A DNA stretch of 43,354 nucleotides, the filler included, from Jimgerdemannia flammicorona (taxonomy: Eukaryota): the NCBI GenBank assembly GCA_003990765.1. It is 2 parts of 2 records of this genome, joined end to end, with 100 filler letters (N's around TTAATTAATTAA, not from the genome) between each part and the next. Parts side by side here need not be neighbours in the genome. Positions count along the whole stretch, not along the records: positions 1 to 21,628 come from RBNJ01001418.1; 1 more part is not named here. One strand, written 5' to 3'. Of this stretch, positions 5,557 through 40,697 are shown piece by piece (positions within the stretch are counted from its first letter, which is position 1; every line of letters starts with the position of its first letter). Made by a program: the position numbers and the translations under genes. Under the pieces are notes generated by a model. That model was not told the origin of the DNA. It did not search any database and worked only from the letters and a program-made list of their open reading frames with translations.

Positions 5557-5660
5557 TAGTAGGTACTAAGTTCTCTAAGTATGTCAGATTCTCTTTAAGA
5601 TATATCTCTTAGACCAACTACAAGTTTCTTATAAGTAAGTTCTATTGAAGTGCCTTTCCA
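5557..5660 (+). repeat. Dispersed ~100-bp repeat shared with 33314-33420 (probable DNA-transposon terminus)
   Basis: ggtactaagttctctaagtatgtcagattctc...aagtttcttataagtaagttctatt matches the copy beginning cagtgggcactaagttctccaagtatgtcag at 33314. Confidence 0.75.
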
Positions 5661-5999
5661 AGATCTTATAGTCCTCAAACTTCTTATCTTTAAACTGTTC
5701 TATTATCTCTTAGATTTGCTTGCTTGAAATTGAGTAAAGAACTAGAACTTCTGTGCTTCTTGAGTAGTTGGATACTTGAATGCTTGAGTATTTTTAATAC
5801 TAAATATTTGAATACTGACTTTATTACAAAGGAAATAAGAGAGATATTTATATAAAATATAATTCAATAGTTGCTAAGTTATAAAACTAAATATAGATTC
5901 CAATAATCAAATAAGATATTTGAATATAGAAAACTTCAGGTTATAAGTACAAATTTGAGTATCTGTATATTGGTTATATAAGATCAGAATTGGAATAAT

Positions 6000-7760
6000 T
6001 TCTGACAATTACAGAAGATCAGAATGCCAGAATAATTTCAATAGTTATATAAAGAACTTTGAGCAGAATATTTAGAATCCTGAGAACTTCATCTTCATCA
6101 CTATCATCAAGGCTAGAGATCAGAGACAGGATGTCTTTAAAGAAAATAAGGTTGATGAATATTTCTATAAGTGTCTTATCTGTTTTGCATATTTTGTATA
6201 TTTTACATATTTTGTATATTTTACATATTTTGCATATTTTGCATGTTTTGTATGTTTTGCACATTTAAATTAGCAGGATGACATCATCACTGATGACATC
6301 ATCATATTCAGCAGTAGTGGGGAGAGCAAAGAGATCAGGGACTCTTCAATTTAGATATTTTTCTCCACAAAGTAGAAGATAAAGATAAGATCTTGAGAGG
6401 GTCAAACCTGGATACTGGGGCCTTAGAATACTGAGATTAATCCTTACAGAAATTGATCTGGATTGTTCTTAAGGATGGGATTCCAGAACTTTTCTATCTC
6501 ATCACTTTTGAGAGTAATGGTGAATTAGGCTTCTGTGACCACTATGGCCTTTAGTACATCTGTATAGCAGGCTGACAATTCCTTGAAGTCTGAGACTCTA
6601 GTATACTCCAAATTGAGAATTGATCAAGGTACATATCTGAAGATCTGATGGGTCTTTTTAACTACCCTCAATTTATATATATCTATAGAGGTGGTATCTT
6701 ATATGTATCTCTTAAAAACTGACCTGAGAGAATTCCTGATAAAAGAGGTTTCCTATTTCATATTTCTACCATATCCAGAGATATTCAGTAGTAGTAGTGA
6801 TTCTTGTTTCCATTTTATAGCAGTAGAGGATAAAGTGATAAGAGTTATCAGTATCTAGATTGAGGCTAGAAATTCTTTTAGTGTGGGTCCTCATAGCTCT
6901 TCTGATGTCTTAGAATATCCTTTCTTAGACTGAGAAGCCTTGGTAGTTCTTAGACCTTATTGTTTGGCAAACAGTAGATATTTTGTTTATAGTGAGTCTT
7001 TTAGACTATTTTAGGATTTTGTGAGTCTTATTTAAATTACTGCTACTGTAGTTTTTTGGTCCTTCTTTTATATTCCTTGAGATATCTATCTTGTAGTCAT
7101 CATGACTCATAGTTTGTTATCATTACTCATCTTGTAGCCTGGGTGAGTTATACCATATGATCTTCTTATACTCTGATCAAGTGGCTTGTAAGAAAAGACT
7201 ATCTTCTGTGATAATGTCACCATTCTGAGGTCACTATTATAATAGATTACTCACCATAATATGAGTATCCAGTAAAGATACTGAGAATAAACTAAAAATA
7301 AGATTACTACTAGTGTCTTTATAACTATTGAATACTAATAGAATTCTACTAAACTATCCTCTATCAATATATAAATCTCTGGAGACCCAGACTCAAATAA
7401 AGTCCAATAATGTCTTAGAAGAATTCAGTATTTTCAGGTCTTCTGTTATTAATAAAAATTAAAGAAGTACTATGAGATCAGATGTCTTATCTATCAATAA
7501 GTCACTCTCAGTAGTACCAAGTAATAAGCCTGCCTTTTTATTGATAACTATATCTATTTTGTCACCAAGAGACTTTATATTCTTTTTTACACTCAACTTC
7601 AAGTTCTTGACTACTTTTATAAAGTATCTTCTGAGAAAATGACCAATTTAAATAATGAATAATAAAGCAATATTATCTTTTAAGTAGTTCAGTATACTGT
7701 CTTTCAGTTTGATGAATATCTAGAGTTTAGTGATAAATCCAATGAGTAGGTTCAGATAAG
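6000..7760 (-). mobile_element. Heavily decayed retroelement (gag-like) remnant, including a 9-bp microsatellite at 6181-6265
   Basis: Long stop-riddled, protein-like minus-strand frame lying among LTR-element fragments; (tattttgca)n-type repeat. No diagnostic motif was resolved. Confidence 0.35.
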
Positions 7761-8228
7761 AAAGAAAGAAAATAACAAATTATTACATATAAGTCATCAG
7801 AATTTCTAACAGAGATTTCAATAAAAATTCCTATAGAAATTCCTACAGAATTTCCAAATAATAGTTATAAATACTGAATATAATATAACTATATAGACAT
7901 ATCCAGCATACTATATTTAATTATAACTTCAAATTGATATAAATATCCTCTATACTGAGTATATTATAATCTTAGTATCACTTTTCTTAAATATAAAAAT
8001 AAAGTAGTATTTTTATCACAAAATCCTCAGATCCAACTTGTTAATAATTTTGAGTCAAATTAACTTAGAATATAAGTATAGTACTTTCACTAGTATAAGA
8101 ATCTGAAAGTGATACTTAAACTATATTGTTACAATAAGTAATTAGAACTTAGTACTTTTTCATAAGAACTTAGAACTTAAAACTGATAGTCATTTTAATT
8201 ATCTATAATATATTAATTCTATCAGTAT

Positions 8229-9770
8229 TGTAATATATCTGGCTCAATAGAGGCAAATTACAAGATTGGGAGTTGATGTAGTTTGGCTTGAGCTCTCAGT
8301 TACTTTGTCAAAAAGCAATAAAATGTTCTAAGATTCCTGAGGTCCTTGGTGTTTAGTAGTATAATAGTCAAAGCTGGATATCTATGAGTGATTTGTATAT
8401 CAGTTTCCTAATTGAGATAGTTCTCTTAGTGTAGCGGTAAGTTGTATGTAAATAGATTTCCTTCTTGAGTCAATTGGGAATTGATAGAAATTCATATGTA
8501 GTGCAACAATCTTCCTTATGTATGATGGTCTAGCAATTTATCAGTTTTCTTCTTGAGCAGTGACAATCTTTTATATAGTGCAATGATCTTTGTATAGTAC
8601 AGATTCCTTATGTTGAGCAGTCTGACAATTTGGCAGATAACTCGATTTGGTGTGGATTCTCCTGAATTAGCTCACTGGGAACAATAGATAACTCAGTAGA
8701 TAACTCAGATTACTCAGATGACTTAGATATCATGGATTCTTCCTAAATTAGTGACTCTCTGGGAAATAACTTGGATGGTGTGGATTCTTTCTGAATTGGT
8801 AGCTTTAACTGAGAATACTACTTGGATGGCATGGATTCTTCCTGAATTAGCAGGCTCTTCTGGGAATATGATGGTATGATTCTTCCTGAATTGATGGCTT
8901 TAACTGGGAAATGTGCTGGTGGCTTCTTGGAAAGGATCTCTTGGCAAAGTTGCATCAAAGACTGGCTTTATTTGTGCAAACAGATTACTGTAAAGTTGTA
9001 TCAGAAACTGGCTTAAGCAAGGTGGCTTTCTCTTAGGCAGAAATCTTTAGGCTTATCTGGCAAGCAAATCAATAATTCTAAAGATGGTGAAGTTCTTCAC
9101 TTGAACTTGGTGGCAAAATCTTCAAGCTTTGTATCAGAAAGTAGACTAGAGTGGGGAAATAAGCTCACAATCTCCTAGCAGTAGCTGTAGAGTTCCTCTT
9201 GAAGTATGGTAGGCAGACTTGCCTTTTGCTTCAATTTCAGACTTATTCTCTTTTGGCTTAGTCTGGCAAGTATACCAAATCAGTTCTTCAGGCTTAGTCT
9301 GATAAGCATACCAATAATTCCAAAGATAGCAAAGTTCTTCACTTGAACTTAGCAGTAAAATCAGCTTTGTATCAAAAAGTGGACTAGAGTGAAAAAGAAA
9401 TACTGTTGCTTTAGATTCAATTTCAGACTGAGGTTTATTCACTCTTGTCTCTGGGGTAATTTATACAAGTTGGTTGCTATCTGGTTACTATGTGGCTAAC
9501 TATAGATTTGCTACTTATGGCAGGTGTACAGAGTCTGTACAGTGTACAGGACCTGTACAGTGTATAGAGTCTGTATGGTGTACAGAGTCTGTACAGGTAA
9601 ACAGACCCTATCTAGTATGTCTGGCTAATTATAAGTGTGGCAGACATGAGTAACTATGATACACTGGAAGTTGTATCATATTGGGAGCCCACATTACCTA
9701 GTTAAGTATACTAATTGTTCATATCATCTGGCTAAGTTATAATTCAGATAGTATGTTTTGGTTTGTTATA
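8229..9770 (-). repeat. 3' LTR (~1.5 kb) of the dUTPase-bearing Ty3/gypsy element
   Basis: Bounded by TGTAAT (8229) and decayed GTTA(C>T)A (9770). Homologous along its length to 36897-38186 (e.g. ctggctcaatagaggcaaattacaagattggg). Contains internal repeats: ggattcttcctgaatt units, gtgtacagagtctgtaca x4, and a duplication 9086-9160/9326-9395. Confidence 0.75.
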
Positions 9771-10325
9771 TCAGCTCCTACTGAAGGATAGTCTGTCCCA
9801 GACTGTTCTTCAGTCATCATTCCAATAAGCATAAGCTGCTTCTGTATCTATACCTGTTTCATCATCTTCATTGTCTGTACTGGGGTCACTCTATTCTATA
9901 GGCTCTTCTTCTTCTTCAGGGAATAGAATTTCAACAGAATTGATGAGGCTCCAATAGATAGCAGGGTTCATTCCTTGAATGTCATTCAGAGAGAACTGTG
10001 CCTGTATCAGAGTGGTGATATTTCATTTATAAATGGTATATAGTCTGTCTGCAGCAGTAGCGTCTCTTCTGGTCAGACCTGTGATATTTCTGATATAGGT
10101 CTGCTCTGGGGCCAGAAGGTTCTGCAATTGTTCACCAATTGTATAATAGGCCTGCAGTTGGTGGACTTATAGTAGGCATCTAGCCTGGGTGAGATTTTCT
10201 TAGTGAACTTGGATCTTCTAAAGAGGGTTTCCATTAGCTTGGCTGAATTAGGGTAGAGGAACTGGTAGGGCCCGAAAGGAGCTGAGGACCAATGTCTGGA
10301 GGCACTGATCAATCCTTTGGCTTAT
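9771..10325 (-). pseudogene. Cryptic extra ORF (ORF3, ~184 codons) between pol and the 3' LTR, unknown function
   Basis: Single frame without frameshift from ATA (decayed ATG, overlapping the pol stop) to TGA adjacent to the LTR. The 7 internal stops are each one transition from CAA/CAG/CGA/TGG. Contains QAYYTIGEQL, TAADRLYTIYK and an acidic C-terminus. Confidence 0.6.
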
Positions 10326-12265
10326 GGTGTAGAGGGAAGATATAGTTTGAGGTAATTGATATGTACTGATGTTCTCAGGATTTGTCTATCCATATTTCTT
10401 AAATAGATGCTAGTTCCTCTAATGTTGGTTGCAAGATAAGGTCCTTCTCATTTGGATTCCAATTTGGTAGCAAAATTTGTTTCAATTATACTTCTCTATA
10501 CTAGTACTTGATCTCCAATCTTGATCTCCTAATTCTTCTATTTCTGGTTATAATACTTCTTTTGTCTTTCTTGGGCTTTAATAATCTGATTTTGGGCTTG
10601 ATTACATAACTGTTCTGTCTTCTTGAGAAGATCTCTGAGATTCTCATGGTCAGCAGTTCTGGTTTTCTTAGCAAATATCATTTTGAATGGCTTCTATTTG
10701 GTGGAGACAGCAGGGATGTTCTAAATTTCCCATAGGATCTCAGGTAAGCAGAGGTTCCAATTACTAGGATTGACTTGGGCAAGTTCTTTCTTAATGGTCA
10801 GGTTCATTCTTTCTGTCATGCCATTGATCTGAGAGTGGTATAATATAGTCCATTTGAGGTAGATCTTGTGAATTCAGATATAACTTGTGATTATGTTATT
10901 GATAAATTCTGTGCCTTGGTCAGAGATGAGTTCTTCTGGGGGTCTATATCTGAGTGTGAGTTCATAGAGAAGGCCTACAATGGTTAGGGCATCTGTGATT
11001 TCCATTGGAAAGGCTTTGGGCCACTTAGTCAGATATTTCACCAATACAAGGATATATTTGTTTCTTCTTAGTATAACTGGTAGAGGTCCAATTACATTTA
11101 TTCTCCATCTCTGAAAGATGTTGTCTGGTGGTGTGATTGGTTACAATGGTGCTTGATAGTTCTTCCTTCCTTAGTACTTCTGGCAGATATCACATTTCTT
11201 GAGTATATCCTGGACTTATGTTCTGAGGTTGGGCCAATGTTGGTGTGTTGTTTGCAGCTTCTCTTCTATATTTATCTGTCTCTGATGGGCTTTCTGATGT
11301 TCTTTTCAGATGAGATCTTCTTGTGCCTTGATAGTCTGAGGAGCTTCCTTTAGAGTGTAGTTCCTCAGGACACCCTTATTCTGGTTCATTGGGGTTGGTG
11401 AGAAAGTACATCAACATTGTTGTTGGCTTTCTCTACTTTATAGATGATAGTGATCTTGTAATCCTGAAGGATAAAGATCCAGTAGGCTAGGATTCTGGTG
11501 GGTTCCTTGTGGTTGAATAGCTATATGGTCTGTAATCAGGGTAAATATTTTTCTAATGAGGTAATGCTTGAACAGAGTGACTGCCCATATGGCTGCAAGA
11601 CATTCTAGTTTGGTGCTACCATAGTTCATCTGCTGCTGATTAATAGCTCTACTTGCATAAGCTATCACATAGTGCTGTTGATTAGATCCTTCTTGAGCTA
11701 AAACTACTCCAAGACCATCTTTAGAAGCATCTGTATGGCTTCTGTAGATTGGGGCACACAAGGATTGGTGCTATAGTCATGCAGTTCTTGAGCTCTTTGA
11801 AGGCTTTTTCTTGTGATTCTATTCATTTGAATAGTACTCCTTTCTTGAGAAGGATTCGGATTAGGGTGGCAACTTGGGTAAAATCCTTAATAAACCTTCT
11901 GTGGTAGGATACTAGCATCAGGAATGATAATATTTCCTTCAGAGTCTTGGGTGCTAGCCAATTGTTGATCTTTTCAGTTTTCTTTGAGTCTGTATGGGTT
12001 CCTTCTTTTGAAACTATAAATCCAAGGAATTTAAGTTTCTGTTTCTCAAAGTAGCATTTCTTTGCATTTAGTCTCAAGTGGTTCTTACAGGTGAGCTTAA
12101 AGAATTTCTCTAGATAGTATAGGTATTCTTCAAAATTTACTGAATAGATGTTGGAATCATCCATATATACAATTAGGCAGTGGTGAATCAAGGAGGTATA
12201 GACTGAATTCATTATCCTCTGAAAGGTGGGGAGTGCATTGCAAAGTCCAAAAGGCATTTGAAGAT
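10322..12265 (-). pseudogene. Ty3/gypsy pol 3' half: RT (YMDD), RNase H, integrase with GPY/F
   Basis: MPFGLCNALPTFQRIM, IVYMDD, HTDASKDGLGVVLAQ..IAYASR..KLECLAAIWAV..LITDH, CDICQ, INVIGPLP, ISDQGTEF, QINGMTERMN, EGPYL. Confidence 0.93.
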
Positions 12266-12372
12266 CAACATCTTTTACCAGTAACATTCAGGTGACACAA
12301 GATTCAGACAACACTTTCTACAATGTTTTTGGTGATTGACAACTATCAACATATATAGTAACAATTGAACTG

Positions 12373-14267
12373 ATGAGCATCTAGTCAGGAGGGAGGTAGG
12401 GCCTTTGGCTAGCAGTAAGTGGGGAGGAGGGGAGACAGTCTGGGGATGCCAGGGGTCTCAATGGCTAGCCGAAGCCCTGGTGGTGGAGGGAGGAGAGGCC
12501 TGAGGCAGCAAGGAGGAGAGAGGTTGACCTTTGCTGACAAGGTCAAAATGGGGAAGATGACCTCTGGTCTGGATGGTTAATTGGGCCTGGGAAAGGCATT
12601 GACAGCTATTGCTGGGGGATAGAGAGGAGGGCCCAGGGGAGTGTCCAGTGGTAGGGGAGAAGGGGGAGTAGGGGCTGGAGATGTAACTGTTGATGGGGCT
12701 GTGACTGGAGATCTGGCAAAAAATCCAGATGTGATGGTGGTTGCTAATTCAGGACAGAGAGTGGGCACAAGGCCCAGGGACCTAGTGGATGGGGTGATGG
12801 GTATGGTGTCAGCACTGTTACTCAAGAAATTGAGGTTGGAATTCATGGTCACTTTGTGTTTCAGGGGCTTGGCAGTGACTGCAAGGATGATCTTAGGACT
12901 GGTGGCACAAGAGGCAAAAGGAGCAGCTTTGGTGAAGTTTTTGAAGGAAAAGGAAGGGGTTGAGGTGGGGTTTGAGGATGAAGAAGTGTTTGCTGGCAGC
13001 CATGGAGAAGGGGGTGACAGTTGGAGGGGTTGTGGTCCCTATGGCCAGGTATATATGCTGGGACCCCCAAGTGGTGCAGTTGATGGTGTTGGATTTTCCT
13101 ATGGTGTCAAAGGAGAGGGCTAGAGAGTTGATTATGGAGGCAGTCAAGGAGTATGGGGAGATTGTGGATGTTGGGTTCAAGGTCTGGGAGGGTACAGAGC
13201 TCTGGACTAGTGATGTCAATATCAGGGTGAGACTGGCTGGAAAGGAGAACATGGGGAAGACAAGGGACTGGCCAGTGACTCTGAGGTGGAGACCTGTGGA
13301 GTGCAAGGTCATGAGGATGAAGGAGACTCAGGAAGAGGAGGAAGACTTGCTTGAGGCTCTGGAGAATCTGGAAGGGGCAGTCAAGAGGAGGAGATTGGCC
13401 TGGAAGGAGTATGAGGCCAGGATGGTGGTGGAAGAAGTTGATGAGAAGAGGGTCAGGATGGATCAGGTGACATGGGAGAGGATGCAGGGGAGGAAAATCC
13501 AGAAGGAGTTGCTGGAAAAGTTGGGTGGTGGTGGAGCAGGCAGCAGCACAGGGGATGGGAAAGCAGGATTGCAGGAGAGTGCCTGGGCTGGGGGAAGCAG
13601 GATGGCCCAAGGTGGGGCTCAGGTTGGATTGGAAGAGGTGAGGGAAGGCAGTGTGGAGGCAGATGTGGAAATGAGCAAAGGTGTACACCCTCAGTATAGT
13701 GTCCTGGGGGGAGCAGGGGGGGAGGAGGAGTTGCTGGATATGCCAGATGAGGAGTGGAATGAGTCAGTGAGAAGGAGCACTCTGGTGGATACAGAGATAG
13801 AGGGTGGTCAGATCACCCAGAGTGTGGCAGAGACAGTGGATGAGGAGAAGTGGCTGTGGAAGACCCTGGAAGGGGTAGCAGCAGAGGAGCTGGGGGGAGA
13901 GGATTTCTGGGTTATGGAAGAGAGACATTGAGAGGAAATCCTACAGAGGGAGGAGGTACCAAGGAAGGTGAGGAATGAGATACTGGTGGTCCTCTTGGAA
14001 TTGGTTGAATACCAAGTCGATGATCAGAGAGAGGAGGAACTTAGGGGGATTGCAAATGACTGGGCAGCATTCTTGTGGAACTTGAAGAAGGGATTGGAGA
14101 AGTGGCATACAGTCTGCATAGACTACTGGTCAGAAATGGAGGTGGTGGATGGGGTAGAATGTCAGGAAATCTTGGAGGCACTGGATGCTCAGGCTGTTGC
14201 AGAGGGTGACTTAGAAGCAGAGCAGTACTTGGATCTGGCTAGGGATGAGATGAGCATGGAATATTAG
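12373..14267 (+). pseudogene. LINE ORF1 (Gly-rich N-terminus, RRM-like region, acidic coiled-coil C-terminus), disrupted
   Basis: TFADKVK motif shared with ORF 21337; LDFPMVSKERARELIMEAVKEYGEIVDVGFK segment. Located 5' of ORF2; stops and frameshifts. Confidence 0.75.
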
Positions 14268-14298
14268 GCTGGAATCTCAAATTCAAACATTTTTCAAT

Positions 14299-17200
14299 AT
14301 GAATAGTATAACTAGAATATTCTCTTTGAACATGAATGGGTTATAGGGGGCAGCTAGGAGGAAGTATATATTTGGATGGCTAAAGGGACTGGATGCAGAT
14401 CTCTTCTTGCTGCAGGATGTCCATTATGAGGCAGATGTGGACTTATAGGATTAGACTAAGGAATGGGGAGGGGCAGTGGTATGGATGGGGAGGGTGGGTA
14501 TCCTCATTCAAAAAGGGATGGGGGATATTGGGGACATTAGACATTGGAGGTCTTGGGTGGTGTGGGGAGTGTGGAAGAGGTCTGGACAAAGCCCGTTGAT
14601 AGTTGGGTCTTATTACTGCCCGGCTGAGAGAGGGGAGTAGGTGGATTGGATTCGTGGGTTGAAAGAGGCTGGTGTCTTGGGTGAGGTTGGGTTGGACTGC
14701 TTGGGAGGTGACTTCAACATGGTATAGGATAAGGAGATGGACAGGACAGATAGCAGGAGGGGCATGCAGAGCAAGAGTAGTGGGTTGGATGACTGGTTGG
14801 AGACAGAGAGGTTGAGTTCTTTGGTGGATTCAGGAAGACAATTTGAGACAATTGGCAGGTATATACTTACTGGGTGGCAGGGCTGGGCTCCAGGATTGAC
14901 TGGATCTTGACAGCAGAGTGCTGGGGAGTAGATGTCTGGACAGCACTGGAGGTGGTTTAGTGTCCATGGTCTGATCACTGGGGGCTGCTAGGAGGGGAGA
15001 GGTTTGGGGGAAGTGGGGATGGGCCTGGACATTAGTGACTAAATTCTTCTTTATTGAAGGATGGGGTTTTGTGGATGGATTGGGAAAAGGAGGTTATTGG
15101 GAGTATTGGGAGGTGGCAGGACCAGGGCCTAGTGATTGGGGACTGCTGGAGGAGGCTGAAGGCAAATGCTCAGGGGTATTGGAGGGAAGCAGGGAAAGGA
15201 AGGTATGCTCAATGATAGTGTAGAGTGCTATGGGCCTCACAGTGATTGGTAGTGCTTATGAGGAGATAGGCAGATGTGCTTGATGATTGGGAGGTATCTG
15301 ACTGGCATATTGTAAGGATCCAAAAGGAGGTTGAGAAGCTTAAAGGAGTGTTACAAAGAGAGGAGGAGGTACAGCTGCAGGAGATGGTGGCCTAGCTGTG
15401 GTGGCAGGGGCTTGAGGAGGGGGAGAGACCTACTAGGTTTCTATCATGGTTGTTACAAGCATGACGAATGAAGCAGCAGTGGGAGGGAGTCCTGGATGAG
15501 GATGGGGAGCTGGTGGTGAAGACTCAGACAATTTTAGGACTGCTGAGAACCCAGTAGGAGGATCTATGGAGTGAGGAAGAAGGAGGGGAGAATGCCTTGG
15601 ACATTGAGAGACAGCTGGGGGACTGGCATTCAGACCCTGCAAGGGGTCTGGGGACTTTGGGGGACCCAGTGAGTGGAGAGGAAATCTGCAAGGTTTTGGC
15701 TTTGACAAGTAAGGGGATGGCTCTGACTTAAAAATAAAAAAAAAAAAAGTAAGGGGATAGCTCTGGAGGAGGATGGTCTTCTCTGGGATTTTTGGAAGAG
15801 GATAGCTGGGGTGAGTGAGGTACTGGAGGAAATGACAGCTATGTATGATGAGGTCATTTGGTCTGGATCTTGGATTGGGGGCCAGTGTCTGGAGCTGGTC
15901 TCCTTACTCTACAAGAATAAGAGAAGATGGGAAGATTGGAAGAACTGGCAGCTGATCATGCTTCTCGACATGGACCACAAGCTGGTGATGAAGATATTGG
16001 TGATGAGACTGTAAGGAATTGCTCAGCAAGTACTTGGTGTGGAACAATATGGATTTGTTGATGGCTGGTTGATCTATGATGGGATGGCTTGGGTACATGG
16101 TGTGATTGAGGGAGTCTAGACTACAGGGGTGGATGGTCAGTTGGTCTTTCTGGATCAGGAGAAGGCATATGATAGAGTGCAGAGGGTCTGGCTAGAGGGA
16201 GTGTTGAAATGGATTGGTACTCCCCCAGGGTTCTGTGGATCATTGATCAGCCTTTTGGAGGATAGTCAGGCTGCATTGGTAGTCAATGACCACAGGGGTA
16301 TAGCCTTTCTCCTTGGTCATGGGGTGCCTCAAGGTGACCCCTTGTCACCCATATTGTATGCCCTCTCCCTGGAGCCCCTACTGGACAGAATCTGGCATTA
16401 TATTGGGGGTTTGGACATTCTAGGGATTAATTGGAAGATGGGGACCTTTGCAGATGACATGGTGGTTAGACTGAGCTCACTGGTGGATGTAGGGGAGTTA
16501 CAGCAGTCTGTTGAATAGTATGAGAGGGAATCTGATGCTAAACTCAACTGGTACAAATGCAAGACTCTGGTGCTAGGTGGTGGAATTGTTGGTGGCAATG
16601 TAATTGGGACAGTGGTGCCAGCAGGTGAACCAGTGCATTACTTGGAGATTTACTTCTTGGTGTTTGGGTCACTTCTCCCCCATGCATAGTGGGACCAACA
16701 ACTTCTGGAGTGGGGAAATGTACTTCTGTGATGGGGTGGTTGGCATATGTCCTTAGCTAGAAGGGTGGTAATGATGAATGTGTATTGGCTGCTGAAGCTG
16801 TGATATGTGAGGTATTATCTGAATTTCCCAGCTTGGGTGGTCAGGAGGCTGTTGAAGATGGCATGATCATGGATCTGGGGAGGGCAGTGAAGTCAGATTG
16901 GTTGAGAGGTACTCACACTACTGGTGGAAAGAGGTGGGCTGGGTTTAGTGGACTTTACTAAACAGCTTCATTGTTTGAGGGCCTGGTGGCTGAGGAGAGC
17001 AAGTAAGCTGAGAGGCTGGGAGTGAGTGCCACTCATGCAGAGGGTATGGGAGGTCCAGTATTCCCCTCATGGAGACTCTGGCGACCTGCTTGTGATGGTG
17101 GCCATGGAGGGGAGCAGAAGGATACAGTATAAGGGCTTCTAGTGGGGGGTGGTGGATGGCACTAAGAGAATTGGACTCCAGTGGTAGGGTGATGAAGGAG

Positions 17201-18046
17201 AGGAGGATTGGGGACCACAGATGTGGTGGTGGGACAGGCTACTGCTGGGTGGTGTGTTGGTGGAGGACTTCCAGCTTGAGGAGGGTATAGAGTGTCTGCA
17301 GGGCTTGGGTGGAGATCTTTGGTCTAAAGCCTGGCAGAGGGTTGGGATTGGCAAGGAGTAGGACTGGAATGGGCTCTAGTATTGGAATAAGTGGGTGATG
17401 TAGTGGCTGCCCTCCAAGTTCTGAATAGTATGGTGGTGAGTTTTACAGTGGAATGTGATGCTGAACTATTGGTCTGGATACTTGGTGGATGGTGGCACAT
17501 TTGAGTGTGAGGAATGTTTCAATATTGGTCAGGAAGGAGGAGTAGTACAAATGCCTGAACATTGGCTTGGTGAGTGCGACATTTTGGAGGTATTTTGGAG
17601 ACATATTATGGACCAGTTAGGGCTATGAGCCCTGGAAGGTGGGGAAGTGGAGAGATGGGGAGAGCTCTGCTGAAGGCTGGTCAGTGGGGTTGGGGATGAA
17701 TGGCTGACTCTTGGCTGGGCTCTGGCCATATAGGTGGGGATGGCTGGGTATTGGATATATGTATTTGAGGAGGGTCAGCAGGTTGGGGTTGGGGACAAGG
17801 TGGCACATTAAGAATGGCTATTACTGGACATTTTGAATGGCTGGTGGTGAGGGTGGGGGCCAGGTGGGGGGAGTTGCAGAGGTTTGGTACAGTGTATCTC
17901 CCAGAAGAGTAGCAGAAGGATCCAGGTGGTGGGTGGCTGGGTTGTGCTCAGGCAGGGGAGCATTGAGGGGAGAGGAATGGGTCCATGGGGCATTGGTTAA
18001 GGGGATGGGGTGATATTGTATCATTATTGTTATAGATGGCAGTAAT
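14299..18046 (+). pseudogene. LINE ORF2 (APE endonuclease, RT, C-terminal Zn finger), disrupted
   Basis: FSLNMNGL, LLQDVH, GGDFN, RIDWI, SDH; PGEDG, LLDMDHKL, FLDQEKAYDRV, GVPQGDPLSPILY, FADD, GGLGLVD; CEEC...EHWLGEC. Confidence 0.92.
15726..15746 (+). mobile_element. Extremely 5'-truncated retroposon insertion (essentially tail only) with 19-bp TSD inside LINE-A ORF2
   Basis: aagtaaggggat(g/a)gctctg at 15707-15725 and 15747-15765 flanks acttaaaaataaaa... Confidence 0.8.
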
Positions 18047-18098
18047 AAAGGGCAGTCCAAGTGACTATAAAAATAAAAAATAAAAAAAAATAAATAAA

Positions 18099-18640
18099 AA
18101 AAGGCATTTGGAGATATTCAAACAGTTTTCTTAAAGCAAGAAAGGCTGTCTTTTGAATGTCTTTGGGGTCCATAGGGATCTCATAGAATTCTGTGAAAAG
18201 GTCCATACTGCTGAAGTATCTGGCATCCTGTAACTGATCCAAAAGGTCATCAATTCTGGGCAAAGCATAGGTATCCTTTTTAGTAACTGAGTTGAGCTTC
18301 CTGTAATTTACACAGAGTCTCCATCCTCCTTTCTTTGGTACAATAAGTATAGGGCTGGCCCAGGGACTGGTAGAGGGTTGGATGACTCCATTGTCTAAGA
18401 GTTCTTGAATGTGCTCCTTTTTAAATGTTTTTAAGTGATGGGGTATTCTATAGGATTTCTGCTAGATGGGTGTTATATTTTCTGTATTTATGCTGTAGTG
18501 ATATAATGGATTATATGGCAGATTGCCATAATTGGTGGTGAAGATATCTTGATATTTGTTGAGAAGTTCTACTAGTTGTTGCTGTTGTTGAGGTGTCAAT
18601 TATTCTCCAATGTTGGTAGAAGGCTTCACTGTCTCCTGGG
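18099..18640 (-). pseudogene. Ty3/gypsy RT N-terminal half
   Basis: LLNKYQDIF, VIQPSTSPWASPILIVPKKGGWRLCVNYRKLN, ALPRIDDLLDQL..FSSMDL..KTAF..LFEYLQMPF. Confidence 0.93.
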
Positions 18641-19036
18641 TCGCAGAGAGGCCTTTCCTTTCTTCTGGGACCTTTTGCCATTTCCCAATAGGTTTAGTTC
18701 ATAAACTTCCCTATGAGTTTGGTTGAGAAAAGGTACCAAATATCCTATGATGGTTTCTTTTGGCAAGATGATGGTCTCCCAACTTTGGTTGGTTGCTCAG
18801 GAGTGTACTGAATTCATCTTGTCAGGGAATGTGTGTCCCTCTATATCCAGGTGAGGAATATCTTCCTTGAGTTCAAAGAAAAGGTTTCTGGGGTCGGGTG
18901 GTGCAAAGATTTCGAAGGTAGTTTGTTCTCCAGGCTCTAGGATGAGATTCTTATACAGTTTGACTGGTTGGCAGTATACTTGCTGGAGAACATTCCTCTT
19001 GAGGTGATTGACTTGAAGGAGATGTACCTCATTCTT

Positions 19037-19440
19037 ATCTGAGCTCCCAAATCCTTTGGCTTGTCTTATTCCTTTAGTTAATTTGGAGACTTCTTGTAAT
19101 TGTGGGGTCTTGACCTTCATGAAGACTGCTTGAGCAATCTTCTGTCCTCTAATGATTTAGTGCCATTCTGTACTACTGTTGTGTAGCATGACCTTAATTT
19201 CGCCTATATATCCTGGGTCAATAGTTTCTCCTTCTATAGTTATTCCTTGTTTGGCAAGTCCAGACCTTGAGGTCAGTTGGATGTAAGCTCCTTGGGGTGG
19301 CTGCATGGCAAATCTAGTTCTGATCATAAAGGTTTTTCCAGGCTTGATAGATTCATCCTCTTGACTGTAAATATATACTCTACATCTTCTGGATAAGCTT
19401 TGGTCAGGGGTTTGGTCTTGGGATGTAGCAGGGCATACTG
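19037..19440 (-). pseudogene. Trimeric-type dUTPase domain within gypsy pol
   Basis: Decayed motif I (AYPED.. with an indel), II TSRSGLA, III GETIDPGYIGEIKV, IV RGQKIAQ, V RQAKGFGSSD. Confidence 0.88.
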
Positions 19441-20759
19441 GGCAATATCCTTACTGAGTTTGGGCTGTCCTAGGGCTAAAGCTCCACTAGCAGAGAGTCT
19501 TCAGGCTCTGAGGTTGAGGTGTGGCCATCTGGCTCCAGTAGAGAGATCTTGGAGATAATTGATTTCTCTTCTTTCTGTAGGGTCTAGGGCTTCCATGAAG
19601 TTGGTGGCATCTTCTGCTCATCCTTAGCAGGTTGTATATCTGATGAGAGCTAGGATATCTTCTCCTAAATCATAGATCTTGAGGGTCCTTCTTTCCAGCT
19701 TTTTGGTCTGGCTTTTTTGAATCTGGCTTCAGTTATCTCCTCTCTTCAAAGTATGAACTGTAACATCATGACTGAGATGGATCTTCTGATACCTGTAGTC
19801 TTGGCAATCTGGGTGTCTTTCATGGTTGCAATATTCCATTGCTTGGAAATGATGTTCCCAGTTATTGATCTCTTGTTGTCTCAGGAATCAGTATCCATCT
19901 TGGTCATAAGTTGGTAGAAGAGTAGATAAGGGATATACTTCTGTCTGGATAAAGAGACCTTGTCCTCTGAATCAGCTTTGCAACTTAGTAGTAACTTCTT
20001 GAAAAGTAGTTGACTGTACAACTATATTCAGGGGTTCTGGTCTCTGGGGTCTCTATCTCTTCTGTTGATCCAGTAGATGGCACTGATAGCAGTAGTCTTG
20101 GAGAGAGTAGAAGACCATTTGGTGTAGACATCTTCTTAGCTAAAAAGCCTTTTCTTGGTGAGTTTCTTTCTTGGGGATAATAGTGATTGTACTGGGTCCT
20201 TCTTCTATAATCCAAGGGTCATTGTCTTCAGGTGGTATCCATCAGGGGTCATCTCAGGGAATGAGTTTGGGGATCTCTTCTTCTTCAAGTACTTCTTGTT
20301 CAGGAACTTCTTAGTCTGGAAATTCTTCTTCCTCAGATGATTCTTGTTCCCAAATTGCTTACACTTCTGCAGCTTCAGTTGCAGGTATTTCTGGAACAAG
20401 TCTGTATTTTTTTTTCTTCTTTCTATACTCTGGGCAGGCTGTGCCAGGCAATTTTCTTGTTCCCATGATCTTGGAGGAATGCTTTGAATACTTGTATCTC
20501 TTGAGGCAGATAGGGCATCCTTTGATTTCTTCTACAATGGCTCCAATAGTGATAGGGATGGTGTTCTTGACCCACACATTGTCTTCTGGTCTGTCATCCA
20601 CTAGGTTAATTTGGAGATTGAGTCTGGGATCATTTCCATCTTCAGATTCTTTCTCTTCTTCTGTAGTAGATTCTTCACTGCTAACATATTCCTTCTGAAT
20701 AGTGACCTTCTTCTTCTTTAATTGCTCATAGCTGGTCACCTTAACTCTATACTTCTTGT

Positions 20760-21100
20760 CTCAGTAGTTAAACTTGAGTATCTGTTGACCAATGTCAACA
20801 ACTGCATTCATTTTCTTCATCCAGTTAGTATCAAGGATCATATCATAGGTAACAGCTTCAGTGACAATAGCTTTGAGGATGGAGAACTGAATGTATCTCA
20901 GTGAAATAGTGATGTTTTATACTTCTCCAAGGGGTTGAGTCCAGGTTCCATCTGCTACTATGATGCTGAGGCTGGATGGTCCATCAATAGGCCATTAGAG
21001 GATATCCAAGAATCATTTGCCAATGACACAGACAGCTGCTCTTGTGTCTATGAGGATTTTCGCTTTTTGTCCTTCAATATTCCCATATAAGTAGGTGCTG
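20760..21100 (-). pseudogene. Retropepsin aspartic protease of gypsy pol
   Basis: YLYGNIEGQKAKILIDTRAAVCVI (DTG decayed to DTR), IIVADG, YDMILDTNWM. Confidence 0.85.
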
Positions 21101-21249
21101 ACATGTCTTTCTGCAGCCTGAATAGGAATGGAAGCTGGTTCTTGCTGTGGGATGAGAACTTGGCCAGTGCTAGACCTGGTGGTTCTCAGCAATTTGTTTT
21201 GGACTCCAGCTGGTATCAGTTGCAGAAACTGCAGGAGATGGACTTCCAT

Positions 21250-21628
21250 CCATACACCTTTCTCTAGTACAATTCACGTTACACAAGACTTCAAGCAACA
21301 GTTTTCGACACTACTAGGAGAAAAGGTACTATCAACATGTCTTCGAGCAAGAGTTCCGACGGGCGTACTGGGTCGGGGGGAGCTAGGGCTTTCGGCTGGC
21401 AGGAGGTGGGGAGGGGTTTTGGCCTGGGGATGGGGGCCTTTGGAGGATCGAAAGGCGGGGAGGGCTCTGGAGGAGGACCGGTGTCAGGTGGTAACAGGGG
21501 AAGAGCTGGCCCCTCCAGCTTTGCTGACAAGGTGAAGGGGAGTGGATGGCCGGTTGGAGACAGGGCTGGAGACAGGGCTGGTGCTGCTGTGGGGAAGGGC
21601 AAGGCGAGCCTGGGGAGGGGGGGGGTCC
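21250..21628 (+). mobile_element. 5' end of a younger related LINE (LINE-B) with ORF1 start at 21337, running into the gap
   Basis: 5' UTR resembles 12266-12320. MSSSKSS..RAFGWQEVGRG..SFADKVKG parallels LINE-A ORF1. CpGs retained. Confidence 0.8.
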
Positions 21629-21728
21629 NNNNNNNNNNNNNNNNNNNNNNNNNNNNNNNNNNNNNNNNNNNNTTAATTAATTAANNNNNNNNNNNNNNNN
21701 NNNNNNNNNNNNNNNNNNNNNNNNNNNN
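21629..21728. other. Artificial assembly spacer (44 N + TTAATTAATTAA + 44 N)
   Basis: Exactly 100 bp with a six-frame stop linker in the centre. Confidence 0.95.
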
Positions 21729-24850: not shown

Positions 24851-25100
24851 CTAATATATAAGCTTGATAGTAGAACCACTCATTGTTAATCTATCTTTTT
24901 TTTTTTTTTGTCTTGTATATTGTCTAACTCGGAGAACTGAAAAGGAAAGTTTACACTGACCCATAGTAAACCACCGCCCCTTTATTGTAATTTCTGTGGA
25001 ACCTCACATGGGTGACTGTTTAACCAGTAACCGAAGTAATTATCACAACCCCATTACCTCTCTCCCCCAAAGTTTTCCACATCACCACTACGAGCAAAAC

Positions 25101-27142
<2,042 letters not shown>

Positions 27143-27477: not shown

Positions 27478-30400
27478 ATGCAGTTGACCTATGAAAACCA
27501 GGAAGAGATATTGGAAGAGCCTTCGCTTTCAACCCCCACCGACTTTAAGGCTTTCCAGTTTCCGTACAGCCCCTACTCCATTCAACATGACTTCATGACC
27601 CACCTTTACGAGGCCATTGAGCAACGGAAGGTTGCCATTTTCGAGAGCCCAACGGGCACGGTAAATATGCAAAACCGTTCATGATAGCTTGGCATATTCC
27701 AACTTTGGCAAGGCGTCAACCTTCAATTGTTAACTTCACAGGGCAAATCACTCAGCTTGATCTGCGGCTCCCTCAAGTGGCTCCAGGACCATGTCCACCG
27801 TCACGACGAAGCCGCGTCAGACGCAAACGACACGACGGCAACGTCCACAGATGCTTCTGACGGTACGTTATCCATGTTTGATCAAGCCCTGACAGATTTC
27901 ATCCTCTCGCTCACCTAGTTTATCGCAAACGGTCTGCCAGAACCAGATTGGATTCTAGCCTACGACGCCGAGTTGAAACGCGCAGCCCAGAAGGACGCAC
28001 TCGCACTATATCGTGAAGAACTCGATGCGCGGATACGGCGCGTGCGCGAACGGGAGGAGAAAGAGCGACGAGGGACGGCGAAGCATTGGCGAAAGAAACA
28101 GGTGTGTTTCCTGACGCAGATAGAGAAAGTTCGCGGTATTGTTGAATTTTATATCCTCAACGTTCTTGTTGCAACGGATGCTTCTACCAGAAACTCTCCT
28201 CTTCAGACGACGCCGCCAACCCGACGATCACATCGCTCACCGACGACGACTCGGAGTTTGTGCTGGAGGAGTACCACAGTGAGGGCGAAGACGACGGTCG
28301 TGACGGTGAACCGAAAGTGACGATGCCGGACGACGCGGCAGATAATCTATCGAATGAGGTGAAGGAGCTAATGAAGCGGTGAGTAGCGGGATAGCATGCC
28401 TTTGTATATCTGCACGTATTTTACGATTAGCTTGTTAGGTAGGTGCGAGAGTATGAGTTTGGTGGAAAAGTCAGCAGATCGGCCGCTGTGTAAGATTTTC
28501 GCCCTCCCTGTCGCGGGTTAGATTCACCTTAGGATTCGATTTATGAGATTTCAGTTGCTGAGTTTCATAAGCTCGCGAGTGACCATGCATGCACATGTAA
28601 TACATTCTACTCCGGTCGTTGATTAACATGTATTTCCTCACATTGCACACAGGCTACAACAACAAGATCAGACGGCGAATATGTCTTCCGGCAGCGGATA
28701 TAGGCAATTACTCGATGACCGCGAAGAAGAGGAACTCGAGCCCGACGAGCCCAAGGTATGTGTGAACGGAATCGGTCGCCGATTCACGTTTCAAGCTCCA
28801 GGATCATCATTTTCAGCCCTGCCTGGAGATAAAGATATGTCCCCGGCGTTATTTGTTAAAATACCCCTCATTCTTACTCGAACCATTCTTCACGATCGAA
28901 AAACCGCTTTATCTCCACACATTGTACCACCCAGATTTACTACGCTTCTCGTACGCACTCGCAACTCACGCAGTTCATTCACGAGATCTGCAAGACCGCC
29001 TACGCGGATGACCTGCGCGCCGTGCCGCTCGGGTCACGCAAAAATCTGTGCATTAATAAGGAGGTGCGAAAGCTCGGAGGCGTGCAGAGGATGAACGAGC
29101 GATGTTTGGAAATGCAAAAGGCTGGTGGGTGTTGGGAGATTGGGTTGAAGGGCAGTAGTGTGTGTCTAAATGGATGAGTTTGTGGTAAGTCTACAGGTCG
29201 TGAAACCCCAGTTTGTGGGGACACGATTTTTATTTTGAAGATAGAATCTGATTTCCTCAGCTTTTTACATCAGGTACTAAACCCGAACACCGATGTCCGC
29301 ATTTACCGACCAAAGACAAATCTCGTATACTCGATTTTCGGGATCACACATTGGTATGAAAGGCAGTATTCTTTATTTGTACTTGTTTCAGAAGGAAGAA
29401 GTTAAGCCTTTTAAACCGATGGTGCTGAATCCACGACGCGCTCTAATAGGCTCACGTTCGCGATATCGAGGATCTCGTTGAAATCGGTCAGAGTTTGAAC
29501 GCCTGTCCTTACTATGGCACTCGACGGAGCATCAGACCCGCGCAGGCAAGCTTCGTTGAATTTATACGTAAATGATACCAAACCCTTCCACATTCTTTTC
29601 GTGTAATAAATCTTATTCATCTATCTGTCGTTGCTTCAACAGATCGTCACCCTCCCCTACCAACTCCTTCTTCACCCATCTTCCCGCTCCTCTCTCGGTA
29701 TCTCCCTCCGCAACCACGTCATCATCATTGACGAGGCTCACAACCTCATCGACACTATCACCGCCATCCACACTTGCCTCCTTCCGCTCGCGCAGATTTC
29801 CCTTGCGCAAAACCAGCTCAGCATGTACCTCTCCAAATACAAGTCGAGGCTGAAGGGCAGAAATGTGGTGTATGTTAGGCAGATACTGGGCATTCTGAGG
29901 GGGTTGGAGATGGTTGTGAGGAAATGGGTAGAGGGGAAGGGAAAAGGCGAGAAGGAGGCGATGGTGTCGGCGAATCAATTTGTGCATGAGGCCGGGATTG
30001 ATCATTTGAACCTTTTCAAGATCGAGAAGTACTTGAGAAAAAGTCAAGTCGCGCGGAAGGTTGGTACTATTTGCTGGAATCTCTAGGTCCATCTCAGAAA
30101 GAATTGTAGTCGAGTGACCGTGACTTCATTTGTTACGAATTTTTATTTTGTCTTGCTTCGTCTCGGTCATCGCCAGTTGAATGGTTTTGTAGGAAAGATA
30201 CAAGAACAGGAAGCACAACAACAGCAATCAAAAACGTTTGGTGGAACGGCCGGTAAGAAGTACTTGGGATAAATTTCAGCACTCCATCTCTTAGGCTCTG
30301 ATCGATATACCCATTAATAGCCGCTTAGGAAAAATGCCATCTTCCATATTTACTTCGAGTTAGCCGCATCCTTCTCCACCGTTCCATCCCTCTCGCAAGT

Positions 30401-32177
30401 CGAGACCTTTCTCATGGCCCTCACACACGCCGATAAAGATGGCCGCGTGGTCATGGGCGTAGGCGATAGTCCGGCTGAAGAGCTATACGTGAAATATATG
30501 CTTTTGAACCCCGCCAACGCATTCCGCGATGTCGTGGAGGAGGCTAGGAGCGTGGTGCTAGCGGGAGGGACAATGGAGCCGGTGAATATATGTTTTGTTG
30601 CGATCGACGATTATCCGTGTCAAGAATTCTCTTTACGATATAAAAGCAGAAGGCGCTAATGTAATCTAAACTTGGTCGCATTCATTCTTTTCTGATTCTC
30701 CTCCATATTTCTTTTCGAAGATTGCCGACTATCTACACCATCTTTTCCCCTATCTCCCACCCGACCGTCTCTCTCGCTTTTCGTGCGGCCACGTCATTCC
30801 CCAGGAGAATCTTATCACACTGGCCGTCGCTGAAGGACCGTCGAGCATGCCTCTCGAGTTCACTTTTGAGAAGAGAAGCGATGCAAAATTGGTACGCGGA
30901 GAATGCTGCTTTGGGGCAAAGCGAGCCCTCTATTTAAGTTCATATGTCCAAGTGACGTTTGTTGAGCTTACAATTTGAGGTCCTAATGCTCTCCCGATTA
31001 TCATATCACTCTCTAGATAGACGAGCTGGGTCAGATTGTCGTCAACCTTTGCAACCTAATCCCAGACGGCGTCGTTTGCTTCTTTGCGAGTTACGCGTAT
31101 CTCGAGCAGGTCACTCGGCGGTGGGAAGGTTCGGGCGGGGTGTTGGAGCGAATCGGGAAGAGGAAAAAGGTTGGTGGATTCATTATGTGGTTTTGTCAAA
31201 TTTACAGACAATTGTGCCCAGGGGATCTTGGTGGCGGTGGCAAATGACTAAACAATCGAGTGTGGTGACCTGCATGTAGGTCTTCCGGGAACCGCGGCAA
31301 GCAAATGAAGTCGAGCAGACGTTGCGAGATTATGCGCTGTGCATAGATTCCTCTGAGGTTGGTTGATACTCAGCGTCCCTGTGCTCATTTAGCTGCACGT
31401 CGTCTTCCCATTACCAAACTCCTACGAGCTCCAGAACTAATTATCCAACAGACTGGCTCGCCATTAAACGGGGCCCTACTACTTTGTGTAGTGGGCGGAA
31501 AGATGTCGGAAGGGATCAATTTCTCGGATAGATTAGGAAGGTTTGGAACGGAGCTCTTTCACCATCATATGACGACCACTGCCATTCATTTTGGTTTACT
31601 CATAATATATTTCGGTTACCTGACATTTGTTCCGTTTCACGGTTCTCTCCCGTTACGCAGAGGAGTCATCATGGTCGGCCTCCCGTTTGCAAATCTTGGT
31701 TCTGCTGAATTGACGGAGAAGATGCGGTATATCCAGGAGCGACCTGGGGCTACGCCCGACGCTGCGAAGGATTATTACGAAAATTTATGTATGCGCGCAG
31801 TGAACCAGTCCATTGGTAAGGACGGCACTGATTTTTCTCGCTTTTCTCTATATCAATATTTATTTATTGAACCCTTTGATTCATCGATCTTGTTAATTTA
31901 AACATATTTTACTTCATATATCGACCCAATGCACTCCATATTAACGTAAAACTCTCTCGCAGGCCGAGCTATCCGGCACAGGAATGATTACGCAACAATC
32001 ATTCTACTTGACCGTCGATTCTGCACTCCGCGCATCCGAAGCAAGCTTCCAGGGTGGATAGGTGAGCGGACGGAGGAGTGCGCTAAGTTTGGGAAGACTG
32101 TCGGTAAGGTTGCAGCGTTCTTTCGAAAATGGAAAACACTAGAGGGTAGAGGTGCGGCGGAGGGTGTTGGGTCATAA
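27478..32177 (+). CDS. CHL1: CHL1/DDX11 Fe-S cluster DEAH DNA helicase (XPD/FANCJ family), many introns
   Basis: FPYSPYSIQ (Q motif); ESPTGT|GKS; EPDW; EEYHSE (EYE-like); [10 protein letters not shown]; Fe-S Cys in [17 protein letters not shown] and [59 protein letters not shown]; stop TAA at 32175-32177. Confidence 0.96.
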
Positions 32178-33313
32178 GCATATGAGTGTTTGGGTCTTAG
32201 AGGAAGATGTCTGTTATCGGCGATCGTGAACGAATAAAGACACAAATCACTTGGTGCGTACTAGATGGCATTCCGCCAACCAGTTAGTCATTTGCGAGAT
32301 GCATGGATGGATTATTGCCTCGCATTCCGCCGTGGAGCTACAAACATAACGCAACAAACCTGGTATCCCGGTTCGGTTTTCCATCCCAATCGCCCGGTTT
32401 ACGTAAATTAAACGGATTTTCGAATGTCTGTTTGTCCGACGAATCAGGATTTTACGATATATTCCGCGTACATTTTTCTTACGGCTTGAAGCTACAAATC
32501 GAAACCGAGCATCAATGGTAACGACAGTTACGAAAAGTCACTGTCAACGAACGGAAACACAATACCTGGTATGACCCTCTTTACATCTCGGTCCAGAACG
32601 ACCATAGTTATTAACTTTAGTCAGACCATGAACCTTCAATTGCTTGGCGCATTGATGGTCGTTGAAACAATACTGCTCGGGTGGTGGTAGCAGATAGATT
32701 TTGTCATGATTTACCACCAGGATGTGTCAGTCACGGTCGTGAGCATATTTAATACGTGCACCTATACATTTTGTGGGTGACAGAGCAAAACACACCCTTT
32801 CGCAACTTAAAGATACAAGGTCCTCCCCACTGTATTGATCATCATGATGAAAAAAATTTGGACAACTCACCTGGTGCAATCTTCATTGGGGCCATCTGAC
32901 CACATCTATAATATCTCACTCTGTATCTGAATTGAGGACATCTCCTATCTACATTCATAACTGATAGTTATCTATATTAGAACCAATATTAATATAAATT
33001 TAGAATTAAAAATATTACTGAAAATCAATCTCATGCAAGAATATACATCTCTTTGATATAATTATTTACTGTCTTTTTTGAATCAGATTTCTTATTATTA
33101 TAATATAGCAGATACTTAATCTGAGAAGTATGTATAGTAGATTTCTTTATCTTGTTCTTTTGATCTTGACTTCTCAGAGTTCTTAATAGAGGTGAGATTG
33201 AAGTATATATATCTGTTTGTAGGCTTACTAATTCTTTACTTTTGAACTATTTCAATCTGAGAATTATTTATTCTAGATACTGGAGATATTTATATAAGTT
33301 TGCTAGTATCACA

Positions 33314-38186: not shown

Positions 38187-38341
38187 CTATCTATAAGTAA
38201 GAAATATAACCAATATATATAATTTATATAATCTACTCATAGATAAGAGATGTAATCAATATAGATATAAAATATATATATAATATGAGAGGCTTTTGAT
38301 AGCCTAAAAAGTATTCTACTTTAGTTATTATATCTATTATA

Positions 38342-39932: not shown

Positions 39933-40627
39933 TAGATTAGTTAGTATTGTAGAAGATAGATATTATAGATATCATTAATTATGGATGTCAATACTCCTAC
40001 TTAATTATTATTATTTCTATTATTTACTTGTTGATAGGGTGTTTCTGGCTTATTGTTTAAACTCATTAGTCTTTCTGTAGTCTTATTGGCTATGCCTCAT
40101 TACTAGCTATATTGCTGATCTTATCAGTCTTATTAATCTCACCTATATTTTGAACCTTAGGTTTAGATTCACCTCTGTTGATCTTATTACTAGTCTTATA
40201 TATACTGACTTTATCAGTCTTGTTAGCTGGTATCCTTATTGTCATAATTGCCTTAACTATTTGAGAGAGCTTTATAATTACCTTGAATATCTAAGTGAGT
40301 GCCTTTGTCATAATTATCTTCTACTACTAAGAAGAACTTTATTATCACCATTAGTAGGCTTCTTCACTATACCTAGGCCATATTCATCCATACTTATAAC
40401 AGAACTATATTTTCTATTACTAAGTATTTATATCATATATCTTACAGTATAGTATATATACTAGAGGAGTTTTTAGCTATTAACTGGAACTCATAATCTA
40501 TATTATAATAAATAGAAGAAGTAATTTATTTATAATATAAATTGTATACTTTTAGGTATTAATATAAATGATATAAAACAAATTAGTATAAAGTTATATA
40601 GATATATATTGACTTATAATTCCAATA

Positions 40628-40628
<1 letters not shown>

Positions 40629-40697
<69 letters not shown>

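Follow-up and report, generated by a model that had tools for sequence, protein, structure and literature searches.

We consider it likely, as a whole, that a very abundant Ty3/gypsy family of Jimgerdemannia flammicorona encodes Gag, protease (PR) and an active dUTPase followed by a second, dead dUTPase-fold domain (Y) in one ORF1, that the active enzyme is the later acquisition of the two, and that reverse transcriptase (RT) is reached behind both by a -1 frameshift. The element in the window, by which we mean the whole stretch of 43,354 nucleotides analysed, is a dead copy of this non-chromoviral family. Only positions 1-21628 of the window map to contig C1418 of our genome set (G000); positions 21629-21728 are an N-TTAATTAATTAA-N linker that joins two contigs.

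On the minus strand, the region from about 9100 to 21250 is a single decayed Ty3/gypsy element (Table 1), with a CpG observed/expected ratio of 0.04 against 1.06 in the host genes of the window. Gag-CCHC, PR, RT, RNase H and integrase (IN) follow one another between LTRs in the order that defines Ty3/gypsy. The single pol ORF from PR to IN that is also used to define the group is not what we found: PR is in ORF1, RT and RNase H are in ORF2, and IN is in ORF3. The protease was recognized through a stop-free natural ORF1, P0021, of 1343 amino acids, in which Pfam finds the CCHC, protease and dUTPase domains (gag-asp_proteas, E 6e-10); relatives of P0021 at 74-81% identity share its ORF1 endpoint. 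The X spacer between protease and dUTPase ends, at its C terminus, in a conserved EALDP/TGARWP block. The ATGA overlap at the start of integrase is present in 19 of the 20 copies read (22 examined), and no chromodomain was seen after the SH3-like part of IN in the copies read. ORF4, which has an ATGA overlap of its own, varies more in sequence among sister copies than pol does.

Table 1. Coordinates of the decayed Ty3/gypsy element and of the sequences inserted in or abutting it, as positions of the window.
Feature	Position	Strand	Basis or remark
Aspartic protease of ORF1 (decayed here)	20760..21100, bounds approximate	-	tblastn of intact ORF1 P0021 on the window
X spacer, about 440 aa, acidic and Cys/His-rich	19431..20759	-	without Pfam family
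dUTPase, trimeric type	19035..19430	-	family has all five motifs; motif I damaged in this copy
Y, probable dUTPase-fold domain, catalytic motifs absent	18728..18967	-	profiles and fold model
Putative slippery heptamer, ORF1 phase	18680..18686	-	G GGA AAU in the window copy
Candidate stimulatory stem-loop	18639..18672	-	7 nt downstream of the heptamer
ORF1/ORF2 overlap	18626..18701	-	limits: -1-frame stop 18699-18701, ORF1 stop 18626-18628
RT N-terminal part, ORF2, -1 frame	18099..18698	-	RVT_1, E 2.7e-08
LINE-like element inside RT	12264..18098	+	poly(A) tail; target-site duplication, ~17 bp
RT C-terminal part and RNase H, ORF2	11386..12263	-	RVT_1, E 3.1e-13; ends at ATGA stop/start overlap
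Integrase, separate ORF3	10325..11389	-	frame closes shortly past the SH3-like part
ORF4, small accessory gene 3' of integrase	9790..10328, approximate	-	ATGA start in 6 copies read (22 examined)
3' LTR remains	9127..9770, approximate	-	blastn against full-length sisters
Foreign CpG-containing sequence, truncates gag	21251..21628	+	contig end at 21628

Several other sequences share the window with this element. The LINE-like insertion is about 5.8 kb long; near 40678-40726 there is a related 3' end, oppositely oriented. The foreign sequence that breaks the element upstream of the protease retains its CpGs and resembles a LINE 5' end; it probably derives from the 5' part of a younger LINE. Segments at 5558-9471 and 33250-38097, about 28 kb apart, match each other, which suggests that the other contig contains another LTR element in a more decayed state. 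Two intron-containing host genes without CpG depletion are present on the plus strand: an NAD-dependent epimerase, GDP-fucose synthase-like by eye (24960-27050), and a DEAD_2/Helicase_C_2 helicase (27500-32130). An inverted repeat of 261 bp (38331-38591 and 39683-39943), 95% complementary and 1091 bp apart, is possibly a small DNA transposon, and tandem arrays occupy 1150-1700 (unit about 100 bp) and 34472-34685 (unit about 18 bp).

A DNA search for sister copies gave 1279 candidates, the 39 scored ones being 89-92% identical, and a protein search gave 8497, of which 134 were scored. Full sister copies are about 9.5 kb long, with LTR pairs 87-94% identical. Three subfamilies can be told apart, A and, at 74% and 65% nucleotide identity to it, B and C; identities among the three span 64-75%. 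In the 16 long copies, the other apparent stops inside ORFs switch among CGA, CAA and TGA from copy to copy, as expected of CpG decay. One sister copy, L037 (G000:C1784:160-10159), carries an internal inversion or a head-to-head nesting. The best-scoring samples for the family were mostly soil metagenomes. No relative of P0028 was found in IMG/VR and the only match in JGI metagenomes was one phage-like dUTPase locus, so that DNA of the relatives at 74-81% identity was not recovered. As weak evidence, none of 2102 candidates proved to be a longer relative of dUTPase-Y.

The dUTPase itself is beyond reasonable dispute. The first-pass annotation had read it, between protease and RT, from motifs II-V (RSGLA, IDPGYIGEI, GQKIAQ and RQAKGFGSS), with a decayed motif I, and had proposed a check with the Pfam dUTPase HMM. 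All four motifs were found and the location was borne out. With stops read as X, the window copy (18797-19507) matches PF00692 at E 3.4e-20 and 72.6 bits, against a cut-off of 22, and a sister copy matches TIGR00576 at 121.6 bits, against a cut-off of 102.55. The decay of motif I is true of the window copy and not of the family. Compared with 6/6 sisters, the window copy is one base short near 19374-19379, within motif I, and this loss shifts its motifs II-V out of the protease frame; as 67 of 79 sisters have motif I intact, its decay is damage specific to the window copy. In their canonical spellings, motifs II, IV and V were found in 69, 70 and 64 of 84 sisters, respectively, and motif III exactly in 43 of 84, with its Asp retained in the eight most frequent variants. 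All five motifs, in trimeric order and with the motif III Asp, are thus the majority state of the 79-84 sister copies. Between subfamilies, dN/dS of the dUTPase is 0.14-0.20, compared with 0.17-0.38 for X and 0.13-0.21 for Y (nine copies, with codons containing stops or gaps skipped). A separate later insertion, absent from sister copies, was the outcome that could have overturned the annotation, and it is ruled out by the presence of the dUTPase across the sisters. The domain is almost certainly real and ancestral in the family; it is a selected, integral part of the element and very likely to be catalytically active in live elements.

The dUTPase had also been described as in frame with pol, and here the annotation has to be corrected. 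ORF1, that is Gag(CCHC)-PR-X-dUTPase-Y, is closed by a stop in all 16 long copies (stops counted per column), and RT-RNase H follows in the -1 frame after an overlap of about 70 nt, whose two bounding stops are likewise present in 16/16. RT is offset by -1 relative to dUTPase-Y in each of the 66 distinct copies that span the junction, and the window copy has its lost base in addition. Sequencing contigs from three studies span the junction gap-free in three of four runs, the fourth ending within it. The dN/dS of RT between subfamilies is 0.05-0.21 in the -1 frame, whereas the RT region read in the ORF1 frame gives 0.66-1.12; because RT is selected in the -1 frame, decay is ruled out as the origin of the frame break.

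A heptamer of the X XXY YYZ form that marks frameshift sites lies in phase within the ORF overlap. It reads G GGA AAC in 25 and G GGA AAU in 12 of the 66 copies, so that 37/66 are intact; CpG decay can account for most of the remaining 29. PMC5009743 lists G_GGA_AAC with the heptamers most prone to shifting. The candidate stem-loop lies within the 5-9 nt downstream of the heptamer at which a stimulatory structure is expected, and its arms are the same in the three subfamilies. A stimulatory RNA structure is unproven, because the fold of the window copy is no more stable than shuffles (z -0.2), covariation is lacking and synonymous conservation falls to background just beyond the ORF1/ORF2 overlap. 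We also drew, by eye, a pseudoknot whose second stem would lie beyond the ORF1 stop; neither the subfamily comparison nor the synonymous conservation supported it, and it was dropped.

From its layout, RT is very probably reached by a programmed -1 frameshift at the heptamer. Splicing or some other recoding could serve the same end, with the heptamer present by chance, and the weakness of the stem speaks for this, as does a chance rate of about 5-7% for an in-phase heptamer in the 23-codon overlap, a rate taken from three related copies, whose 2032 codons contain 4 such sites elsewhere. We nevertheless think it improbable: the junction is common to all three subfamilies, with the heptamer in phase near the overlap start in each; Gly-Asn is invariant in 10/10 aligned rows though both flanking residues vary; and no Met precedes the RT core in the -1 frame of the sister copies read. 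Barely credible by comparison is the idea that a non-autonomous master copy, inactivated by the mutation that broke the frame, was amplified in trans. Every genomic copy examined is decayed, with heavy CpG loss, as such an origin would have it, but the break is common to three subfamilies that are 25-36% diverged and whose RT has been under strong purifying selection throughout, and it recurs in contigs of three other studies and in independent proteins; the dN/dS between subfamilies has largely refuted this idea already.

A second, degenerate dUTPase-like fold downstream had been suspected in the first-pass annotation, and profiles, a structure model and fold searches now support it as Y. By itself Y matches no Pfam family, and the ESM Atlas offered only leads below 0.9. 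An AlphaFold model of Y reached pLDDT 83 with an alignment of 4 Y and 31 rows of the pre-RT spacer described below, no true dUTPase being included; a model from the family alone reached pLDDT 32. The Y model leans on the 31 spacer rows. With this model, all 40 of the Foldseek matches listed were dUTPases, and ranks 1-22 of 48,161 chains in VIA were dUTPases, dCTP deaminases and herpesviral tegument (pp71)/ORF10 proteins. The best VIA match had Z 11.6 and rmsd 7.2 over 102 aligned residues, and the match to the EIAV dUTPase had Z 10.2 and rmsd 3.2 over 99. A profile of Y and spacers found 21 PDB sequences at E <=10 (best 0.0027), 18 of them named dUTPases, two named E165R, which we take to be the ASFV dUTPase, and one a xylanase. 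Y very probably has the dUTPase fold. The RSG or motif III pattern is present in 0/35 Y/spacer rows, and Y, predicted to be without catalysis, was under purifying selection. If the model is right, its role would be non-catalytic and structural, possibly in oligomerisation.

Many of 150 RT relatives carry a beta-rich spacer directly upstream of RT, and a profile built from 16 spacers detects it in 63 of the 150, seeds counted. Six of the 16 seeds had been chosen via their dUTPase similarity, and the other ten make up an unbiased profile. On the 16-seed profile, true dUTPases score up to 31.9 bits, Y 11.5-18.1 and 500 shuffles at most 7.7. The spacer matches the dUTPase profile at 96.7% with all seeds and at 92.9% with the ten unbiased ones, and one spacer, that of P0163, passes the Pfam dUTPase cut-off by itself (24.3 vs 22 bits). 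Y matches the spacer profile at 78% (E 1.8e-5) with all seeds and at 42% with the ten unbiased seeds, with which the HMM scores of Y are 7-10 bits against a shuffled maximum of 7.0; Y matches the dUTPase profile at 8%. Named bearers of the spacer are amphioxus, a goby (fish), ticks (one named via a cluster member) and a pseudoscorpion. As a lead, look-alikes of the spacer in the Atlas (0.94) belong to no Pfam family and occur most often in oomycetes, rotifers and molluscs. The taxonomic range is not measurable from the spacer search, which returned three family proteins and otherwise rows of one pseudoscorpion, and the search for RT relatives was crowded by multi-RT proteins.

In the survey of RT relatives proposed in the annotation, the spacer is widespread, and the nearest RT relatives of the family (P0120, P0159, P0147 and L146/L149) have neither dUTPase nor Y. 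RT groups (SH-aLRT 90) with elements that include one from Entrophospora, the nearest named relative, and that lack dUTPase and Y as well. L146 and L149 (G000:C8569 and C3096) are a related gypsy family with Gag-PR-RT in one frame and a short acidic spacer. Of 152 RT rows, 94 were kept after removal of redundancy, and 36 were afterwards picked by hand. In the 36-row tree the family falls among elements that bear the spacer (SH-aLRT 91); the 94-row tree puts it outside the main spacer group, with its placement unresolved. A single clade of the family and 18 spacer-bearing rows is not rejected (p-AU 0.16). The RT of the family also falls outside a clade with support of 99 that includes L086 and is called chromovirus-like by inference, in a tree without named references. 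The families of the L082-L110 type in the genome (e.g. G000:C7553:1-3251), probably chromovirus-like too, are other gypsy families with the order Gag-dUTPase-PR-RT in a single frame.

We lean towards Y being orthologous to the animal spacer, and somewhat favour the retention of an old dead domain with a later gain of the active dUTPase over a local duplication. In the latter case, Y would stem from a tandem duplication or a second dUTPase capture within the lineage, followed by convergent decay, and its likeness to the spacer would be one of fold and position only. That is a less probable account, for which one can point to the closest RT relatives having neither domain, to the moderate Y-spacer profile match and to the 94-row tree; yet Y is unlike its neighbour dUTPase (profile match 0.9%), it shares with 22/30 spacers a Glu in one aligned column, by eye the motif II region, Y and spacers occupy the same site directly upstream of RT, and the smaller tree nests the family among the spacer-bearers. 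It is also rather improbable that Y is a functional partner of the dUTPase in a two-domain enzyme like the monomeric dUTPases of herpesviruses. The EBV dUTPase is the best structural match of Y, and Y is conserved as strongly as the dUTPase, both of which would suit such an enzyme, but the first domain has five motifs in trimeric order, the herpesviral motifs being arranged differently (PMC4531489), and spacers are common without an active dUTPase alongside. Retention of an old dead domain can be carried one step further, to a proposition that we regard as evenly balanced: that the spacer of about 90 aa in a broad range of non-chromoviral gypsy elements is a fossil dUTPase with a structural job, the product of one ancient capture, and that an active dUTPase was regained by this family in front of it, with a frameshift placed behind both.

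The donor of the active dUTPase is less clear. The phylogeny proposed in the annotation does not decide on an independent capture: the 34-row tree, for which 22 of 121 fetched loci were kept after filtering and de-duplication, is unresolved, a host-type origin is compatible with it (p-AU 0.25), and grouping with other retroelement dUTPases is not rejected (p-AU 0.16). The family dUTPase comes closest in identity, at 47-49%, to enzymes of prokaryotes and phages; it is 38% identical to the host-like copy and 30% to the L086 dUTPase. Among 30 loci read, a single intronless host-type dUTPase, L081 (G000:C6287:6598-6984), was seen; it shows some unusual residues near motif II and may be a cellular dUTPase gene or a decayed copy.

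We suggest the following mechanism. Most ribosomes would produce ORF1 alone, while a minority would shift -1 at G GGA AAC and add RT-RNase H; with ORF1 mostly made alone, protease and dUTPase would therefore be packaged at Gag level. Within the particle, the dUTPase would clear dUTP during reverse transcription and so reduce uracil in the cDNA, a role that the annotation had proposed and that seems reasonable. Y would descend from an older dUTPase that lost its activity and was retained for structural purposes, and would be homologous to the pre-RT spacer of many animal gypsy elements; the active dUTPase would have been acquired later, upstream of it.

A dead dUTPase-fold domain seems to be common in gypsy Pol without a Pfam model of its own, and its prevalence raises the question of its job. 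If the spacer is a dead dUTPase, the "dUTPase-like" domains reported here and there between PR and RT would trace to one old capture, and such capture would be one ancient event and no rarity. The active and dead domains side by side in one element allow a direct comparison. The frameshift would lie after protease and dUTPase rather than between gag and pol and, if our reading is true, the family has converged on the betaretroviral over-production of protease and dUTPase relative to RT. In the open-access literature we found no account of a tandem active and dead dUTPase, of a widespread dead pre-RT spacer or of a retrotransposon frameshift placed after a dUTPase.

The position of the dUTPase, taken in the annotation to differ from known ones, is not new, because it has been published for fungi, rotifers and a planarian. 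A dUTPase between PR and RT is reported in PosPlaTy3-5 of Postia placenta (PMC2864245, which also cites dUTPase-bearing Phanerochaete elements and Tuber Tmt1) and in bdelloid Juno, Vesta and TelKA (PMC5408684), and a "dUTPase-like" domain is reported there in planarian Burro (PMC6431247); PMC2774666 and PMC5006619 added nothing decisive. The architecture is accordingly catalogued as far as the PR-RT position goes, and not for the family's own clade. PosPlaTy3-5 is a fungal Ty3/gypsy element with a dUTPase between PR and RT, like our presumably fungal family, but it comes, with the Phanerochaete elements and Tmt1, from a chromovirus survey, whereas our family lies outside the chromovirus-like clade. 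Further traits that may set our family apart from these elements are the 440-aa X, the second dead fold, the RT in another frame and the separate integrase, and a chromodomain was not seen in our family. For Juno, Vesta, TelKA and Burro a single domain is described, in contrast to dUTPase and Y here, and the bdelloid frameshift is described as gag-pol, whereas ours lies after dUTPase-Y. In a vertebrate metavirus used as a proxy for the PNMA ancestor, a dUTPase domain was annotated with HMM and structure tools (PMC11011659); it is mentioned there in passing, and called neither inactive nor widespread. It may be the pre-RT spacer.

The betaretroviruses MMTV and M-PMV resemble our family in making protease and dUTPase above the level of RT, which needs a further -1 shift, but they do so with NC-dUTPase-PR and two frameshifts (PMC4531489), while our family has Gag-PR-X-dUTPase-Y in one ORF and one inferred frameshift. 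For Y, the nearest parallel comes from the fold matches, among which herpesviral proteins derived from dUTPase appear. The herpesviral pp71/UL82, ORF10 and pp65 are all derived from dUTPase. In these proteins, as predicted for Y, the dUTPase fold is reused without catalysis; they are large DNA-virus proteins, whereas Y, part of a retroelement polyprotein, consists of one domain of about 85 aa.
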